A DNA stretch of 64,000 bases from a phage. The stretch is taken from NCBI GenBank assembly GCA_012401045.1, contig GCA_012401045.1_4704.1. One strand, 5' to 3'. Below, piece by piece: positions 40,346-61,390 of this stretch. Within the stretch, counting starts at the first letter, position 1, and every line of letters begins with the position of its first letter. Below the pieces are notes generated by a model, which did no database searches, was not told where the DNA came from, and saw only the letters and a program-made list of their open reading frames with translations. The position numbers were made by a program, and so were the translations under genes.

Positions 40346-41992
40346 TTAGGCTCCACGAGGTCCCGTTAAGTTGCGTAATAGGAACGCAACCGTATCGTAA
40401 CCAATATCGATGTTGAATTTATTTTTACCACTTACCCAGAAAGCTCGCTTCTTGTGCGAGTTGGTAATTTCGTCAATAGCTTCCATGGAATAAAGAACGT
40501 TAACCGAGACCGTATCACCATCAAAGTCCCCACCAAGTCCGGCGAGGTATGGCGCAGGGACAATAGTCGTTTCTACGAACGAAGCATTAGGTAACCAGTC
40601 GGGGTATTCCCATGCGATAAATCGTTCATCCGTTATTGGTTCCCAGTTACTATCCAGTTCGGTTTTCGGTTTTGCGGCGACGGTTGTACGTGCGTAACAG
40701 GTTAACGGGATAACGGATTGCATACCTGATACCGGATAACGTGTTACCATCGCAGCCAGGTTATTCCAGTACTTATATCCGGCAATATAGATAAGCTCGG
40801 TGTAAGTAATGGGGTGAACATCCGCGCCAGGTTTATTCAACATCTCCGGGGGTAATTCACTCATGCCACGGAATAACCGAAACGAATCGTTGTTCACATA
40901 GACGAGGCAAAGATATCGTCCATTGACCATGATAGGCTCGTTACGCACGCCAGGATCGCTTAAGGTGTTCAGTAAACGTTCTATTCCGTCCCATGTTGTA
41001 AAGTCATCGATGGTGTCTGGATCAAGCGTGACGCGCTCACGTTCCATCGTTTCGGTATCAGTAAGTTCAACTTCTGTAACATCACGGACAAATATTTCCT
41101 GCAAAATACCGGTACGTAACGCATGTTGCGTTACTGGGAGAGCGGCTTTACTCATCTGGTATAACCCTAACTGAACCGCGGTACAGGAAGGCTGGTTAGG
41201 CGACCCTAATACCTCCGTTGTGGGGTTAATTGCCGAAATAACGTTACGGGTTGAGTTCCAAACGCGACGTGAACCAAACTTACCTTGGAAGATCCCTTTC
41301 TTACCCTGGAACATATCCAACAGTAAAGCGTAGATATCGTTGAATGTTCTCTGTAAGCTCCAGCGCTGGCCGTCGTAAACGGGATCGGAATAATCTTTTA
41401 ATCCATCAGGGACGGTGTTAGAAATTGCAAGGAAACGACGATACAACTCCGTGATTTCTTGCTCGCTTTCATACCCACCTTCTTTTACTTCTATTTCACG
41501 TAAGCCTGCAGGCAATACCAGTAAGTGACGGGTCATCGCTTTGAACATGTTCTCTTCGACAACTTTAATTCGTAGCTCTCGTTGAGCTGAACCCGTTGAA
41601 ACGAACTTGATATCCGCGACGTGTTGTGCAAAGAACCCGTATCCTGTTTGTCCTGTTAATGCATCAGACGCAACGAAGTCGCGTTGTTCGGGATCCCACC
41701 GAGCGTACGCCTTCCCCGACATGATATCGCCATAGAGGTGTTTTAATCGAATGAGACGGTCGTAAATGACAGGATGCAGGATTTCAACCTTGCATTCAAT
41801 CACCGCAAATCGACGGTCTCGATCTTCACTACCCGCACTACCAAAGATGGTGTAAGAATAGAAACCATCATCGTGGAAATTACCGGTGCTTGGGTCACGA
41901 ATGCTCATGCTCGTGATCTTGGGGAGAAAACGTAACTGCTGTTTATCGAGGTGTAAAATACTAATATTAAACGGCTCTCTGACTTTAGCCAT
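40346..41992 (-). CDS. Multisubunit RNA polymerase beta-prime N-terminal-half homolog (about 548 aa)
   Basis: C-terminal GGDFDGDTVSVNV (beta-prime NADFDGD catalytic motif), GKKGIFQGKFGSRRVWNSTRNVISAINP (cf. LLGKRVDYSGRSVIVVGP), RRFAVIECKVEILHPVIY; start ATG 41992 with SD AAGAGGAG. Confidence 0.8.
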   Translation of the reverse strand: MAKVREPFNISILHLDKQQLRFLPKITSMSIRDPSTGNFHDDGFYSYTIFGSAGSEDRDRRFAVIECKVEILHPVIYDRLIRLKHLYGDIMSGKAYARWDPEQRDFVASDALTGQTGYGFFAQHVADIKFVSTGSAQRELRIKVVEENMFKAMTRHLLVLPAGLREIEVKEGGYESEQEITELYRRFLAISNTVPDGLKDYSDPVYDGQRWSLQRTFNDIYALLLDMFQGKKGIFQGKFGSRRVWNSTRNVISAINPTTEVLGSPNQPSCTAVQLGLYQMSKAALPVTQHALRTGILQEIFVRDVTEVELTDTETMERERVTLDPDTIDDFTTWDGIERLLNTLSDPGVRNEPIMVNGRYLCLVYVNNDSFRLFRGMSELPPEMLNKPGADVHPITYTELIYIAGYKYWNNLAAMVTRYPVSGMQSVIPLTCYARTTVAAKPKTELDSNWEPITDERFIAWEYPDWLPNASFVETTIVPAPYLAGLGGDFDGDTVSVNVLYSMEAIDEITNSHKKRAFWVSGKNKFNIDIGYDTVAFLLRNLTGPRGA

Positions 41993-42237
41993 GGAGACAC
42001 TCCTCTTTACCACCACCGGCTGCGGCGGTATCATCTGAACACACGAGAGACGTAATGGGTGATGGCGTCACCCATCGCTTCCTTGCTTGAGGCGAGGAAG
42101 TTATTAGGTTACGTACCTGCCTGATTTTATCAGGTGGGCGATGTGTGAAGTTACGCTTCAACATTATCAATGCCGAAGGTAAACTTCGTGCATCACGTTC
42201 CAACGTAACATGGGAACGTATCGAACTGGAGGTATAC

Positions 42238-53456: not shown

Positions 53457-54086
53457 ATGAGCGAATATGGTGTTGCCCCCGTAGATGATGAACCGCAAGA
53501 AGCACCTGATAAATTCGAGGTCCGTCTTGACGAAACCCGTAATATCCGCCAACGATTTATTCAACGCCTTGAAATGCTGTTAGATAGCGAATTCAAAGAT
53601 TTCGAGCTTAATCCTGGCGCTGATAACAAAGCCATCGTCGACGTCGAAAACGTCGACCGAATAGGTAAGCTGTTGTTGAAATCGTTGGGCGATAACGACA
53701 AAGTCGACTTAACGTTGAAACGTATCAGTGCCGACCAGGCCATGAATGACAGCGCACTGAAAACAGCACAAGCCCTAACCGAAACCATGCTGCGCCGCTT
53801 AGGTCAGATGGATCAACATCCTCTCGCAGCAGGGGCTGTTTATGAAGGCGAAGTCGTGAAGCCAGTCACGCCTGAAGAACGTGATCGTCGACTTGGTTTT
53901 GCGTCATTGGAAGAGTTCGATAGCAAGGAGTTCTCACCAGGCGTTCTCATCCAGGGACGTGTCGAAGAAACCAGCGATGCTTTCTATGCTAGAATGGCTC
54001 AACTGACGGCGTCGGTTCGTGAGGAGGTATCTCAGAAGATGGCTGCAGATCATCAGTCTTCGGAGGCGTCACACGAGGAGGAATAA
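53457..54086 (+). CDS. Acidic hypothetical protein (209 aa)
   Basis: SD ACGGAGAA; highly acidic composition. Confidence 0.6.
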   Translation: MSEYGVAPVDDEPQEAPDKFEVRLDETRNIRQRFIQRLEMLLDSEFKDFELNPGADNKAIVDVENVDRIGKLLLKSLGDNDKVDLTLKRISADQAMNDSALKTAQALTETMLRRLGQMDQHPLAAGAVYEGEVVKPVTPEERDRRLGFASLEEFDSKEFSPGVLIQGRVEETSDAFYARMAQLTASVREEVSQKMAADHQSSEASHEEE

Positions 54087-54777
54087 AATAACTGAACCAT
54101 TTTATTCCAAAGAACCGCATGAACATCACAGGCGCGTTAGAAAGTTCGATTGCTTCGTAAAGTTTGTCATAAGCCAGATCGGAATCAGGGATGGTTTCAC
54201 TGATTCGTCTGGCTACAACCAATACGTTACAAATCGGATTGTCTTCTAACAGCATCTGATTGGGGAGGTGCCAGCGTTTGAAATCGTAAAAGAACATCGC
54301 ATTATACGTCTTACGGATTTCTGACGGATGCAGTGTGGCCGGATGACGGTAAATAATCTCAACGCTATCTTGCGCGCCGAGGTATTGCTGGATGCCTTCT
54401 TTTAACGCAATTGCAGCATCTCCCACAAATTCAAACGGGTACGTATTCACATGAACCGAAAAATCCGGTGCGGCAATCCCTGTCAAGCGGTCTTTCATGT
54501 AGTCCGCAACCACGTAACATAATCGCCACATCAACTCCGTCGGAATACATTTATCAAGAATGGTTTCATCGATATTTGCCAACGCACCCTTAAACTCTTC
54601 GTAAGTGTAAGTAACACCCGCCTGCTTTTCCGGCTCCAGGTTATAGGGTCGGTAATGCCATTTCTTCCCCCACTTTCTGATAGCCTCAGGATCCAACGTT
54701 GTTGCTACCGCCATTTCGATATCAAGCAGCGCCTCGAGTTCTACGTACACCGTCACTAACGCCGCATTTCCAGTCAT
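53989..54777 (-). CDS. Hypothetical protein (262 aa); 3' end overlaps convergent gene by 98 nt
   Basis: ORF; last ~30 aa Pro-rich and possibly not real. Confidence 0.55.
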   Translation of the reverse strand: MTGNAALVTVYVELEALLDIEMAVATTLDPEAIRKWGKKWHYRPYNLEPEKQAGVTYTYEEFKGALANIDETILDKCIPTELMWRLCYVVADYMKDRLTGIAAPDFSVHVNTYPFEFVGDAAIALKEGIQQYLGAQDSVEIIYRHPATLHPSEIRKTYNAMFFYDFKRWHLPNQMLLEDNPICNVLVVARRISETIPDSDLAYDKLYEAIELSNAPVMFMRFFGIKWFSYFIPPRVTPPKTDDLQPSSEIPPHEPTPSVEPF

Positions 54778-56167: not shown

Positions 56168-56509
56168 CTATTGTCGTGTCTGTTGCGGAAATACCCGAAA
56201 CACCTGGACAATGATGTTCTTGTCCTCGCGGTTGGCGATGTCGATCATGTGTTTTGTTCCAGGACTTTTGAAATCCCAGAACGCAATTAAATGCGTAATG
56301 ACATCGCCCATCCACTCATTGCGTCTGAATCCAGCACCTTTACGATAAGGACCATCCCAATCGGCAGGAAACGTGGTGTATTTAAACCCGTAATCCTTCG
56401 CGTAGCGGCGCACATGCAAATCAGCGCCTGAATGCGCACCGCCAGCAATGAGATGAACTTTGTCGTGAGGAAGGTTGTGTAACATCTGGTTCATACGCTT
56501 TTCGAACAA
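56168..56509 (-). CDS. Hypothetical protein (113 aa) with Gly-rich LIAGGAHSGAD nucleotide-binding-like loop
   Basis: ORF; Rossmann-like motif. Confidence 0.5.
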   Translation of the reverse strand: MFEKRMNQMLHNLPHDKVHLIAGGAHSGADLHVRRYAKDYGFKYTTFPADWDGPYRKGAGFRRNEWMGDVITHLIAFWDFKSPGTKHMIDIANREDKNIIVQVFRVFPQQTRQ

Positions 56510-56895: not shown

Positions 56896-58386
56896 TTATT
56901 TTTTACTCGGACGATTCAATGCGGGTACCGGGTTCTTTGGTTGCTTTGTCTTTTCATCCATCCAGTACGGGAAGTACTCACCAGTACGCATACGCAATAA
57001 GTCCATTGTGGACAGGAACGGCAGCGGGTTAGGATCGTCCAGATACGTCCAGTAACCACGCGTGTTTAACAATACATCCCAATCGAAACCTTTTGCTTTA
57101 AGATCGTCGTACAGTTCCTGTGGGGTGCAATACAGCTGTGGGTTTTCGTAAACCTCTTGACGCCAGAGATTATGCATTTGACACAGCTCCGACGTAATTT
57201 CCAGAGCACGCTGTAAATACTCATCCTCTTCGCAGAGTGAACGAATGGTCGTACGCTGCAACGCAACATCCGGATAAATATCCAAATATACCGTTGAAGC
57301 ACCATCAGCTGACTTACCACCTGACGCATGCATACCCCAACCACGCATCCAATCTTTATCACGCAGGTAGTGGTATTCCGTTAATGATGGTTTAACCCCT
57401 TCGCTCTGACTAACCACAATCGGGAACGGTAAGCCGGTGGGTCCGTTTTTAGCGCGCATGTTAAAGACTTGAATCAACTGCAGATCGGTATCCCCGATAA
57501 GGTTGTCACCAGGCCCACGCGGATAAAGGACGCGTTTATCCGCGTTCTGAAGAATCGTCAGTTTATCGATTTTCCAGAGGTTATTCGTATAAAACGTGAA
57601 GCGTTCCGGGACGTTCTTAAACTTCTCATCGCCCTTAAACCCTTTCAGTTTTCGTACCGGTTGCTGTCCCGGCATACCACCAACGTTTACACCGTCACCA
57701 AGGTGGGCGGTCATGGTAATGTAGATACCCGCCGACGCTGTGAGTACTGGCATCTGTGATAGAATCTGGCTTTTCGCAGCTGCTGAACGCATCGCTTCAG
57801 CATTCAGTTTTGCGCCACCCGCGGTTTCTTTATCGAACAGTGCATCAACGGCATCGATTGGTAATCCAGAGAAACTGTCGATGAGTACAACGGTCGGCAA
57901 CCACCAGGTATAGTTCTCACCATGTTTATTAATAAACGGAACGGCTTTGCGTTGAGATTTATCTTTGACCTTATCGTCACGGAATTTCTTAATCGCATCA
58001 AACCAAATGTTACCGCTCATCTGAACAGCATCGGTGATAAACACACGTTCTTCTTCGAAAAGATCAACACCTGCGATATTAGACATGTTCATCGCAAGCG
58101 TTAAGATACGTGTTGTCGTTAACGACATTTCGGTGTCGTAAACGCTACTATTGCTGTTTGCGTAACGATCGATAACGCGTAACAAGCGAAACATTATGAA
58201 CGTGGTTTTGTTCATGTTGCCGCGAGCGCCTGCGCCCTCAACAAGCATCATGCCGCCGTTACAAATGCTTTCACCGTGTTTACCGATATAGTACCGACCG
58301 CCAGATGTGGGAATATCCATTAAGCAACCAATGTTGAGATTAAAACGCATCTCTTCACCGGGAGAAAGGTACTTATTAAGATTCAT
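56896..58386 (-). CDS. Possible RecA/UvsX-like recombinase-fold ATPase (496 aa), divergent
   Basis: MMLVEGAGARGNMNKTTF (degenerate P-loop, cf. UvsX LLILAGPSKSFKS from memory), TVVLIDSFSGL (Walker B-like), GGMPGQ; SD AAGGAG. Confidence 0.35.
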   Translation of the reverse strand: MNLNKYLSPGEEMRFNLNIGCLMDIPTSGGRYYIGKHGESICNGGMMLVEGAGARGNMNKTTFIMFRLLRVIDRYANSNSSVYDTEMSLTTTRILTLAMNMSNIAGVDLFEEERVFITDAVQMSGNIWFDAIKKFRDDKVKDKSQRKAVPFINKHGENYTWWLPTVVLIDSFSGLPIDAVDALFDKETAGGAKLNAEAMRSAAAKSQILSQMPVLTASAGIYITMTAHLGDGVNVGGMPGQQPVRKLKGFKGDEKFKNVPERFTFYTNNLWKIDKLTILQNADKRVLYPRGPGDNLIGDTDLQLIQVFNMRAKNGPTGLPFPIVVSQSEGVKPSLTEYHYLRDKDWMRGWGMHASGGKSADGASTVYLDIYPDVALQRTTIRSLCEEDEYLQRALEITSELCQMHNLWRQEVYENPQLYCTPQELYDDLKAKGFDWDVLLNTRGYWTYLDDPNPLPFLSTMDLLRMRTGEYFPYWMDEKTKQPKNPVPALNRPSKK

Positions 58387-58484
58387 TGGGTAAAGACTCC
58401 TTCGATTCTTCGACTAATTCTTAGTGTTCAGAGAATAACTATTTTTAGTTAAGACTGACAACCGCTATTTCCACGAGGACAATC

Positions 58485-59813: not shown

Positions 59814-61340
59814 TTACTCCAACACATAACGTGGGTTACTGTATATGTTAGCCCATATACCAACGTCGTCCCCCGATTCAATAATCACGGCGAAACGAAA
59901 CGCAATATCAGATTCACGATAAGTTACCGCGTACGCTTTCGTTTCTGGCGATGCTAAATAGCTCAAGTTCAGACGTTGAGGTAGGTCTAACCCCAAGGAC
60001 ATGGTACAAGACGTAACGCCCTGCTTATCAGGGTTCAGTCTGTAATTCACATCCACCTTCAGGCTTTTCGTAACCTGCGTAATCTCACTATGCACTTTGG
60101 TCACCGTTTTGCCTTTCTTATCCTTTTCTGTTTCGAAAAGAACATCGGTAATTTCGGTTACAACCAGACGCGGTGTGGATTCGCGGTTAGCATCCAGCCA
60201 TTCATCCAGTAACGTCTTTAAGAAGTTCAAGGAATCAATCGCGCGCCAAGCAAGGTTAGGTGGATTACACGCTTCCATTAGAATGGCTGTGTTGGATCCA
60301 CCTAGCGGAAGATGCACGCTCTTACCGAGGCCCGTAGGACGCATCGTAAGATCGCACTCGCCCTCAAGAATATCGCGATGATATTGGCGATGATGAAGGT
60401 TATCTGTGTATGCGATATACACTGACTCCGTTGTCCCATGCTCTAATACCCGAGATGCATGCGTACGCATAATCTCAACAGCATCATCCGGCTTGCTTAA
60501 ATAGATAACACTGTACGCACTATCGCTAATCCTTTTCCCTAACTCAAGACGTCCCTTGTTGTCTTTATCGGTGTTACCACCGAAATAGATGTAGCGGCCA
60601 TCTTTCGCACGCTCTTGCTGCTGGTTGGTGGTAAAGTAGCAGCGTGAGAACGTAAAGAACGGGCTTATTTCCGGTTCGGGACTCCAATATCCCTTAGCCG
60701 GAAGTTCGCGGCGTATTTGGGTTCTTACAGCCCAGTCCTGGTTTTGTGACAGATATGTTCCACGCGTTGCCAACATATCCGCACGTTCGTTACCAACATT
60801 GCCCTCATGTCCAGGAACGTAGCGCAGCGAAATATCGATAGCGTCGCGCTTCGCATCCCTTATCGCACTATCGAGTTTCCGCCACCGTTCCGCATTCATT
60901 AACGGTTTATTGTCGGATTTAACCCAGTTGTTCTCTCGCCAGTTAGCGAGATGGTTGGTGGCACCTACAACAACATATTGGCTGTCCGACAACAGCTGGA
61001 TCCGTTTTGCCCCCTTTGCTTTTCCAAGTTCAATCGCACGTATTGCAGCATCCAACTCAGCCTGATTGTTCGTTACGTTGAAACCCAAAGCCTCTAACTC
61101 ATCCACGTATTCCTTGGGTTCGACCAGCACAGCGTCTTTAGGAAAGTCGAGTTTAGGGTCAACATAACCGTATTGCGTTGGTTTGGGCTTCCCACTTTTT
61201 GAGGGTTCCAAGGTGCCTTTTATTTCTTTCACCATATCGTAGGTGTAGCCGTGCACGCCGTAGCCACCATACCCACTCGATGTTGGACGGGATCCTCCAT
61301 CGCAGTAGAAAACGGCACCGAGCTCAGTATTTCCTGCCAT
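59814..61340 (-). CDS. RNase H-like nuclease with about 300-aa C-terminal extension (about 508 aa)
   Basis: FYCDGG (Asp), NNQAELDAAI (Glu), LLSDSQYVV (Asp), GHEGNVGNERADMLA (Asp): RNase HI catalytic tetrad order; start likely at second ATG (61340) with SD GAGG. Confidence 0.75.
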   Translation of the reverse strand: MAGNTELGAVFYCDGGSRPTSSGYGGYGVHGYTYDMVKEIKGTLEPSKSGKPKPTQYGYVDPKLDFPKDAVLVEPKEYVDELEALGFNVTNNQAELDAAIRAIELGKAKGAKRIQLLSDSQYVVVGATNHLANWRENNWVKSDNKPLMNAERWRKLDSAIRDAKRDAIDISLRYVPGHEGNVGNERADMLATRGTYLSQNQDWAVRTQIRRELPAKGYWSPEPEISPFFTFSRCYFTTNQQQERAKDGRYIYFGGNTDKDNKGRLELGKRISDSAYSVIYLSKPDDAVEIMRTHASRVLEHGTTESVYIAYTDNLHHRQYHRDILEGECDLTMRPTGLGKSVHLPLGGSNTAILMEACNPPNLAWRAIDSLNFLKTLLDEWLDANRESTPRLVVTEITDVLFETEKDKKGKTVTKVHSEITQVTKSLKVDVNYRLNPDKQGVTSCTMSLGLDLPQRLNLSYLASPETKAYAVTYRESDIAFRFAVIIESGDDVGIWANIYSNPRYVLE

Positions 61341-61390
61341 TGTAAACCTCATTAATCATTGTCCGTATGATAGCCCAAAGTTGTACGGTA

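Follow-up and report, generated by a model that had tools for sequence, protein, structure and literature searches.

A divergent UvsX/RecA-like ATPase with a UvsX-type P-loop in a Goslar-type nucleus-forming jumbo phage

Results

A UvsX/RecA-like gene at a conserved position in a Goslar-type phage

We analysed a 64,000-nucleotide stretch of phage DNA (NCBI GenBank assembly GCA_012401045.1, contig GCA_012401045.1_4704.1), referred to here in its entirety as the window. A complete open reading frame of 496 codons plus a stop codon lies at positions 56896–58386 on the minus strand and encodes a UvsX/RecA-like protein, referred to below as the recombinase. The gene starts with ATG, and a Shine-Dalgarno sequence, AAGGAG (58397–58402, minus strand), is visible in the sequence, 10 nt before the start codon. 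A scan for promoters and terminators around the gene revealed no excess over shuffled sequences, and the whole 64-kb window (1–64000) contains no tRNA genes and no Rfam families at the gathering threshold. By megablast, the window matches Escherichia phage vB_EcoM_Goslar with 97–98% identity. Goslar is a 237-kb chimallivirus, i.e. a nucleus-forming jumbo phage, and a gene for chimallin ('nuclear shell protein') is found within the first 25 kb of the same window.

The recombinase and Goslar gp193 share 99.8% identity; the latter is labelled 'hypothetical protein' in both GenBank and RefSeq. It aligns with PhiKZ gp152 (Nlp1) at 38% identity over 480 residues (E 1e-104) and with PhiPA3 gp175, annotated 'RecA', at 37.7% identity (E 5e-88). 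Homologs with as little as ~25% identity were detected by tblastn in 288 phage records, every one of them a jumbo phage; the hosts of these phages include Pseudomonas, Erwinia, Salmonella, Vibrio and Serratia, among others, and many of the homologs are labelled 'putative UvsX'. The order of genes in Goslar, gp196-195-194-193-192(+)-191-190, corresponds to gp149-150-151-152-153(+)-154-155 in PhiKZ, with a common slot consisting of an RNAP-beta fragment, two small ORFs, UvsX, a divergent structural gene, a small ORF and an RNase H gene. Based on homology and synteny, we conclude that the recombinase is the ortholog of Goslar gp193, PhiKZ gp152 (Nlp1) and PhiPA3 gp175.

The gene, its UvsX/RecA assignment, its nuclear localisation and the phenotypes of its orthologs have all been published already, and it is a core gene of nucleus-forming jumbo phages. 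Goslar gp193 was published as a putative UvsX, with fluorescent fusions found with the phage nucleus in 100/100 infected cells. PhiKZ gp152, described as Nlp1, a 'UvsX/RecA homolog', is imported into the phage nucleus via Imp1 and Imp2. PhiKZ deleted for nlp1 replicated slowly, formed small plaques, had a competitive index of 0.05 and was sensitive to the CBASS nuclease NucC. The authors of that work read this as a loss of recombinational repair. PhiPA3 gp175 ('RecA') and PCH45 gp72 ('UvsX') are nuclear, the latter being non-essential as judged by Tn-seq, and chimallivirus UvsX already serves as a nuclear marker and import tag. We found no biochemical assay (ATPase, filament formation or strand exchange) of any chimallivirus UvsX in the searchable literature.

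Neighbouring genes and other features of the window

Two genes downstream of the recombinase, at 56168–56509 on the minus strand, lies the equivalent of Goslar gp195, a 113-aa protein that matches the Pfam family PF10686 YAcAr (YspA/cpYpsA-related SLOG family) above the gathering score (E 2e-8). DprA, which loads RecA, belongs to the SLOG superfamily, and gp195 might thus act as a recombination mediator. BLASTP revealed no counterpart of gp195 among PhiKZ gp150 and gp151, leaving a conserved mediator role unsupported. On the other side of the recombinase, at 59814–61352 on the minus strand, is a gene for a 512-aa protein with an RNase H domain confined to residues 91–198, followed by ~300 aa with no Pfam match. 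This protein is the ortholog of PhiKZ gp155 (Nlp2, an imported nuclear protein; 26% identity, E 6e-48).

Elsewhere in the window, two convergent genes, at 53457–54086 (plus strand) and 53989–54777 (minus strand), share 98 nt at their 3' ends (53989–54086); their Goslar counterparts, gp199 and gp198, are annotated with this overlap. The window lacks 2,051 bp of the Goslar genome (211,748–213,798) that comprise an annotated group I intron and an adjacent 490-aa ORF similar to PhiKZ ORF179, and no group I intron was detected by Rfam anywhere in the window. The junction of the missing stretch is at 40519–40527, within an ORF at 40346–42034 (minus strand) that is continuous over 562 aa and reads ...GGDFDGDTV..., the catalytic Mg-binding motif of the RNA polymerase beta' subunit. 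The continuity of this ORF across the junction indicates that a virion-RNAP subunit gene, which is interrupted in Goslar, is present here as an intron-less allele.

The predicted structure has a RecA-type core that is missed by curated profiles

None of the Pfam and NCBIfam models for RecA, UvsX and Rad51 matched the recombinase, PhiKZ gp152 or 54 relatives, even at E ≤ 10. Similarly, searching PDB sequences with phmmer, or with hmmsearch using the family profile, returned only noise, with no RecA or UvsX. A full HMMER scan of 1.84 billion cluster representatives identified 863 family members, each being a cluster at 50% identity, with 507 of them at E ≤ 1e-30. This is far too few members to include canonical RecA or UvsX. 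No Pfam or NCBIfam model covers the 863-cluster chimallivirus UvsX family.

Some members of the family carry additional N-terminal sequence. P0166 has 716 aa, the first 236 of which have no Pfam match. P0143 (L011:82-2403, contig ERZ15185956 NODE_22493) is a single ORF of 773 aa in which an N-terminal ATP-dependent DNA ligase (adenylation + OB) is fused to a UvsX-like module. A fusion of this kind fits a role in DNA repair, and is also possibly an artefact of assembly or of a frameshift; because the contig is 2.5 kb long with 1.8x coverage, we treat it as weak evidence only.

Profile-profile comparison connects the family to UvsX. Using hhalign, we compared the family profile with eight true UvsX proteins, the T4 UvsX sequence being the T4 record at 100% identity. 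The profiles matched with 87% probability (E 4e-6), with residues 18–96 of the recombinase aligned to residues 19–102 of T4 UvsX, K60 placed on K66, and E86 placed on E92. An extended, permissive alignment added D170-S171 on D143-S144 and H228 on H195, with low confidence beyond residue ~96; the motifs described below that lie past this residue are mapped using the permissive alignment together with the structure. The match between the family profile and a single sequence of E. coli RecA had a probability of 0.1%, and global-mode hhalign failed to align the family profile with UvsX, indicating that the sequence link is to the UvsX profile only, and is confident only over residues 18–96.

An AF2 model of the recombinase, built with 54 sequences, has a mean pLDDT of 88.8 and a pTM of 0.90. 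In Foldseek searches, RecA filaments matched this model with E values of ~1e-10 and TM scores, normalised to RecA, of up to 0.74. The model has a RecA-type alpha/beta ATPase core, and recombinases match it better than do other RecA-fold ATPases, such that the predicted structure settles the RecA/UvsX-like nature of the protein. The first-pass annotation had proposed a divergent RecA/UvsX-like ATPase from pattern resemblance, and this proposal is borne out by a match to PHROG_97, 'UvsX-like recombinase' (E 1.8e-32), by the UvsX profile match, and by the AF2 model and Foldseek. The same PHROG_97 match, and retention of the segment in 262/262 aligned relatives, indicate that the UvsX/RecA motif order is real rather than a chance pattern. 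A best structural match outside the RecA fold had been named as the outcome that would speak against the proposal; the best Foldseek match is within the RecA fold, so the proposal stands.

The ranking of structural matches also bears on the possibility that the protein is a ring helicase or translocase of the DnaB, T7 gp4 or RadA/Sms type, which would act in replication or branch migration instead of strand exchange. The combination expected of a DnaB or T7 gp4-type enzyme, a helicase core as best structural match together with a helicase-specific N-terminal domain, was not found. A ring helicase was rejected on the basis of conservation and fold ranking, and we consider this assignment highly improbable.

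The P-loop is of the UvsX type

Residues 51–62 of the recombinase are GAGARGNMNKTT (nt 58201–58236). Within this segment, the Walker A motif or P-loop, ARGNMNKT (residues 54–61; 58204–58227, minus strand), lies between a strand at 49–54 and a helix at 60–74, and is modelled with a pLDDT of ~92. Counting backwards from the lysine, the P-loop reads A54(-6)-R-G-N-M-N59(-1)-K60-T61, and hence has the normal length of a Walker A motif and the canonical strand-loop-helix arrangement. The classical pattern [AG]xxxxGK[ST] permits Ala at -6; the strict pattern is missed because Asn replaces glycine at -1. Thus, the first-pass annotation was correct that GAGARGNMNKTT departs from the strict pattern; however, its description of the P-loop as non-canonical has to be qualified, since the length, the -6 residue, the Lys and the Thr are all normal, and only the -1 Gly differs.

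The P-loop of T4 UvsX, which hhalign superposes on that of the recombinase, is G60-P-S-K-S-F65-K66-S67 (GPSKSFKS). This sequence also lacks the last glycine and fails the strict pattern. T4 UvsX is a well-characterised active recombinase, and the strict Walker A pattern therefore does not decide membership of the superfamily. Among 262 relatives of the recombinase, K60 and S/T61 are each conserved in 262/262 and N57 in 258/262. Position -6 is G in 233, A in 25 and S in 4, and position -1 is F in 155, Y in 61, G in 27, N in 9 and H in 4. The P-loop is a fully canonical GxxxxGK[ST] in 27/262 relatives, indicating that position -1 is simply tolerant of change. The P-loop signature of the family is [G/A/S]-R-G-N-x-[F/Y/N/G]-K-[S/T], with canonical length. 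We conclude that the odd P-loop, in which the lysine is preceded by an aromatic residue (by Asn in the Goslar clade), is a trait of the lineage that T4 UvsX shares, and that it is not a sign of inactivation.

The remaining catalytic residues are conserved

The YDTE motif (58129–58140, minus strand) aligns by hhalign with YDSE of T4 UvsX and contains the predicted catalytic glutamate, E86, conserved in 260/262 relatives and equivalent to E92 of T4 UvsX and E96 of RecA. In the extended hhalign alignment, the putative Walker B strand, TVVLIDS (57874–57894, minus strand; model strand 165–170), matches VVVFIDS of T4 UvsX (D143-S144), with D170 conserved in 261/262 relatives and S171 in 257/262. The motif TAHLGD (57694–57711, minus strand) includes H228 at the position of the allosteric switch, which corresponds with low confidence in hhalign to H195 of T4 UvsX and Q194 of RecA. 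This residue is His in 246 of the 262 relatives (94%) and Gln in 13, and hence His or Gln in 259/262. R311-A-K313 (57448–57456, minus strand) supplies a basic pair that may act in trans across the subunit interface, each of R311 and K313 being conserved in 261/262 relatives. K313 falls on K246 of UvsX in the low-confidence region of the hhalign alignment, and the pair are candidate equivalents of K248/K250 in RecA and K246/R248 in T4 UvsX. The roles of E92, H195 and K246/R248 in T4 UvsX are taken from a review of T4 recombination (PMC3016280). Arg93 (58108–58110, minus strand), found in 248/262 relatives, aligns with the adenine-stacking Tyr99 of T4 UvsX, and this substitution suggests a different mode of adenine contact.

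One alternative is a RecA-fold paralog that has lost catalysis, i.e. a pseudo-ATPase retained as a scaffold, or as an adaptor or cargo of nuclear import, with a P-loop that neither binds nor hydrolyses ATP. Such a paralog would be consistent with the Asn at the last glycine position and the mismatch to strict Walker A, with the inability of curated RecA models to detect the protein, and with its wide use as an import tag, which makes import its best-documented property. By contrast, conservation across the 262 relatives reaches 99–100% at the Lys and Ser/Thr of the P-loop, at the predicted catalytic Glu, at the Asp of Walker B and at the candidate interface Arg/Lys. A dead site would have drifted, and conservation of at least 99% down to ~25% identity excludes a decayed one. 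Moreover, active T4 UvsX has Phe at the P-loop position in question, 27 relatives retain the canonical GxxxxGK[ST], and the repair and replication defect caused by deletion of PhiKZ nlp1 is like that of T4 uvsX mutants. With regard to paralogy, no other gene annotated as a recombinase was seen in the 64-kb window or its Goslar equivalent. We therefore regard a dead paralog as extremely improbable. Of the alternatives offered by the first-pass annotation, a divergent recombinase or an inactive paralog, catalytic conservation in 262 relatives and PhiKZ nlp1 genetics favour the former and argue against the latter.

Family-specific loops and a conserved C-terminal extension

In total, ~190 residues of the recombinase have no RecA counterpart. 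Insertions are located around residues 96–115, 141–165 and 279–301, with 141–165 forming a beta-hairpin that contains the invariant residues P150 and P164. The AF2 model does not include a long N-terminal helix. Following the switch strand, at the position of L2 in RecA, the recombinase has an enlarged L2-like loop (residues 232–268; 57583–57693, minus strand) of ~37 aa, as compared to ~15 aa in RecA/UvsX, in which L247 and K257 are conserved. The loop is predicted to be flexible, with a pLDDT of ~59 for residues 231–250. Such low pLDDT is as expected of a flexible DNA-binding loop, and by analogy with RecA the loop may bind DNA.

The C-terminal domain spans residues 331–496 (56899–57396, minus strand). 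Residues 331–413 roughly follow the layout of the RecA/UvsX C-terminal domain, with a beta-hairpin and helices at 365–413 in that layout. Residues 414–480 form a family-specific extension with no structural counterpart. The extension has a higher mean conservation than the ATPase core (0.66 vs 0.52), and includes the near-invariant residues G433, YDW 434–436, L440, T442, R443, S459, D462, Y471, P473 and W475.

Sak4-type proteins consist of the core only and lack a RecA-like C-terminal domain. The recombinase, by contrast, has a C-terminal domain and a loop of the L2 type, and its ATPase site is complete and conserved, including candidate trans-acting residues. These features argue against a single-strand annealing protein with a RecA fold, such as Sak4 of phage HK620, which would pair complementary single strands without ATP-driven strand invasion. 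Phage proteins that are remote homologs of RecA and have annealing activity do exist (PMC5928155). Taking these points together, we consider a protein dedicated to annealing very unlikely; like the inactive paralog, it was rejected on conservation and fold ranking.

Discussion

We consider it probable, at roughly 85%, that the gene at 56896–58386 encodes the ATPase that carries out strand exchange in homologous recombination in a Goslar-type chimallivirus, and that this protein has a core of the RecA fold whose ATP site is intact. This reading builds on the fold, orthology, synteny and residue conservation described above. The ATP site would consist of Lys60-Thr61 of the P-loop, the catalytic Glu86, Asp170 of Walker B, His228 as a switch of the T4 UvsX kind, and interface residues Arg311/Lys313. 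The protein would be synthesised in the cytoplasm and then imported into the chimallin-bounded phage nucleus, as expected from published work on the 99.8%-identical Goslar gp193 and on the orthologs of PhiKZ, PhiPA3 and PCH45. By analogy with RecA and UvsX, it would polymerise with ATP on single-stranded phage DNA, search for homology and catalyse strand invasion, and in this way it would support recombination-dependent replication and the mending of broken phage genomes. We propose filament formation, an ATPase activity that depends on ssDNA, and strand exchange by this analogy, and all three fit the phenotype reported for deletion of PhiKZ nlp1.

To what is already published, our analysis adds a reading of the P-loop as a UvsX-type Walker A motif, the finding that a curated profile is missing, and a conserved C-terminal module without a structural match. 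A P-loop of the form [G/A/S]xxxx[F/Y/N/G]K[S/T] is not grounds for calling such proteins inactive. The C-terminal extension is a defined candidate for a determinant of import or partner binding; it could be a recognition surface for Imp1/Imp2 (PicA), the place where a mediator or nuclease partner docks, or a different filament interface. That the extension (~414–480), the doubled L2 loop and the helix-less N-terminus together represent an adaptation to the phage nucleus is a speculative idea that we think unlikely.

Between the recombinase and T4 UvsX (PDB 3IO5) there is no BLAST-level similarity, and the link is by profile only (E 4e-6 over 79 columns). The recombinase is ~105 aa longer than T4 UvsX, with the three insertions (around 96–115, 141–165 and 279–301), has an L2 loop about twice as long, and carries a C-terminal extension that UvsX lacks. 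It also has Arg93 in place of Tyr99, and belongs to a family whose members are taken up into a proteinaceous phage nucleus. Bacterial RecA (PDB 3CMU, 8AMD) is 11–15% identical to the recombinase and gives no sequence-profile match. RecA has Gln at the switch position, whereas 94% of the recombinase family have His; the recombinase also lacks a predicted long N-terminal polymerisation helix, and a RecA-type role in LexA cleavage is not expected of it. For Rad51, RadA, DMC1 and the Rad51 paralogs, matches extend over 209–231 residues, shorter than those to RecA, and the recombinase lacks the helix-hairpin-helix N-terminal domain of Rad51/RadA.

By contrast, homology to the UvsX/RecA-like nuclear proteins of other chimalliviruses, namely Goslar gp193, PhiKZ gp152, PhiPA3 gp175, RAY gp150 and PCH45 gp72, is full-length. 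These proteins and the recombinase have in common the P-loop signature xRGNx[F/Y/N]K[S/T], the C-terminal extension, and a gene position between a virion-RNAP beta fragment and RNase H. Positions -6 and -1 of Walker A are occupied by Ala and Asn in the Goslar clade, by Gly and Phe/Tyr in most relatives, and by Ser and Phe in PhiKZ. The recombinase also has a few additional residues, at 28–30 and 414–416, and a basic C-terminal tail. The differences between the recombinase and its chimallivirus orthologs are clade-level details only.
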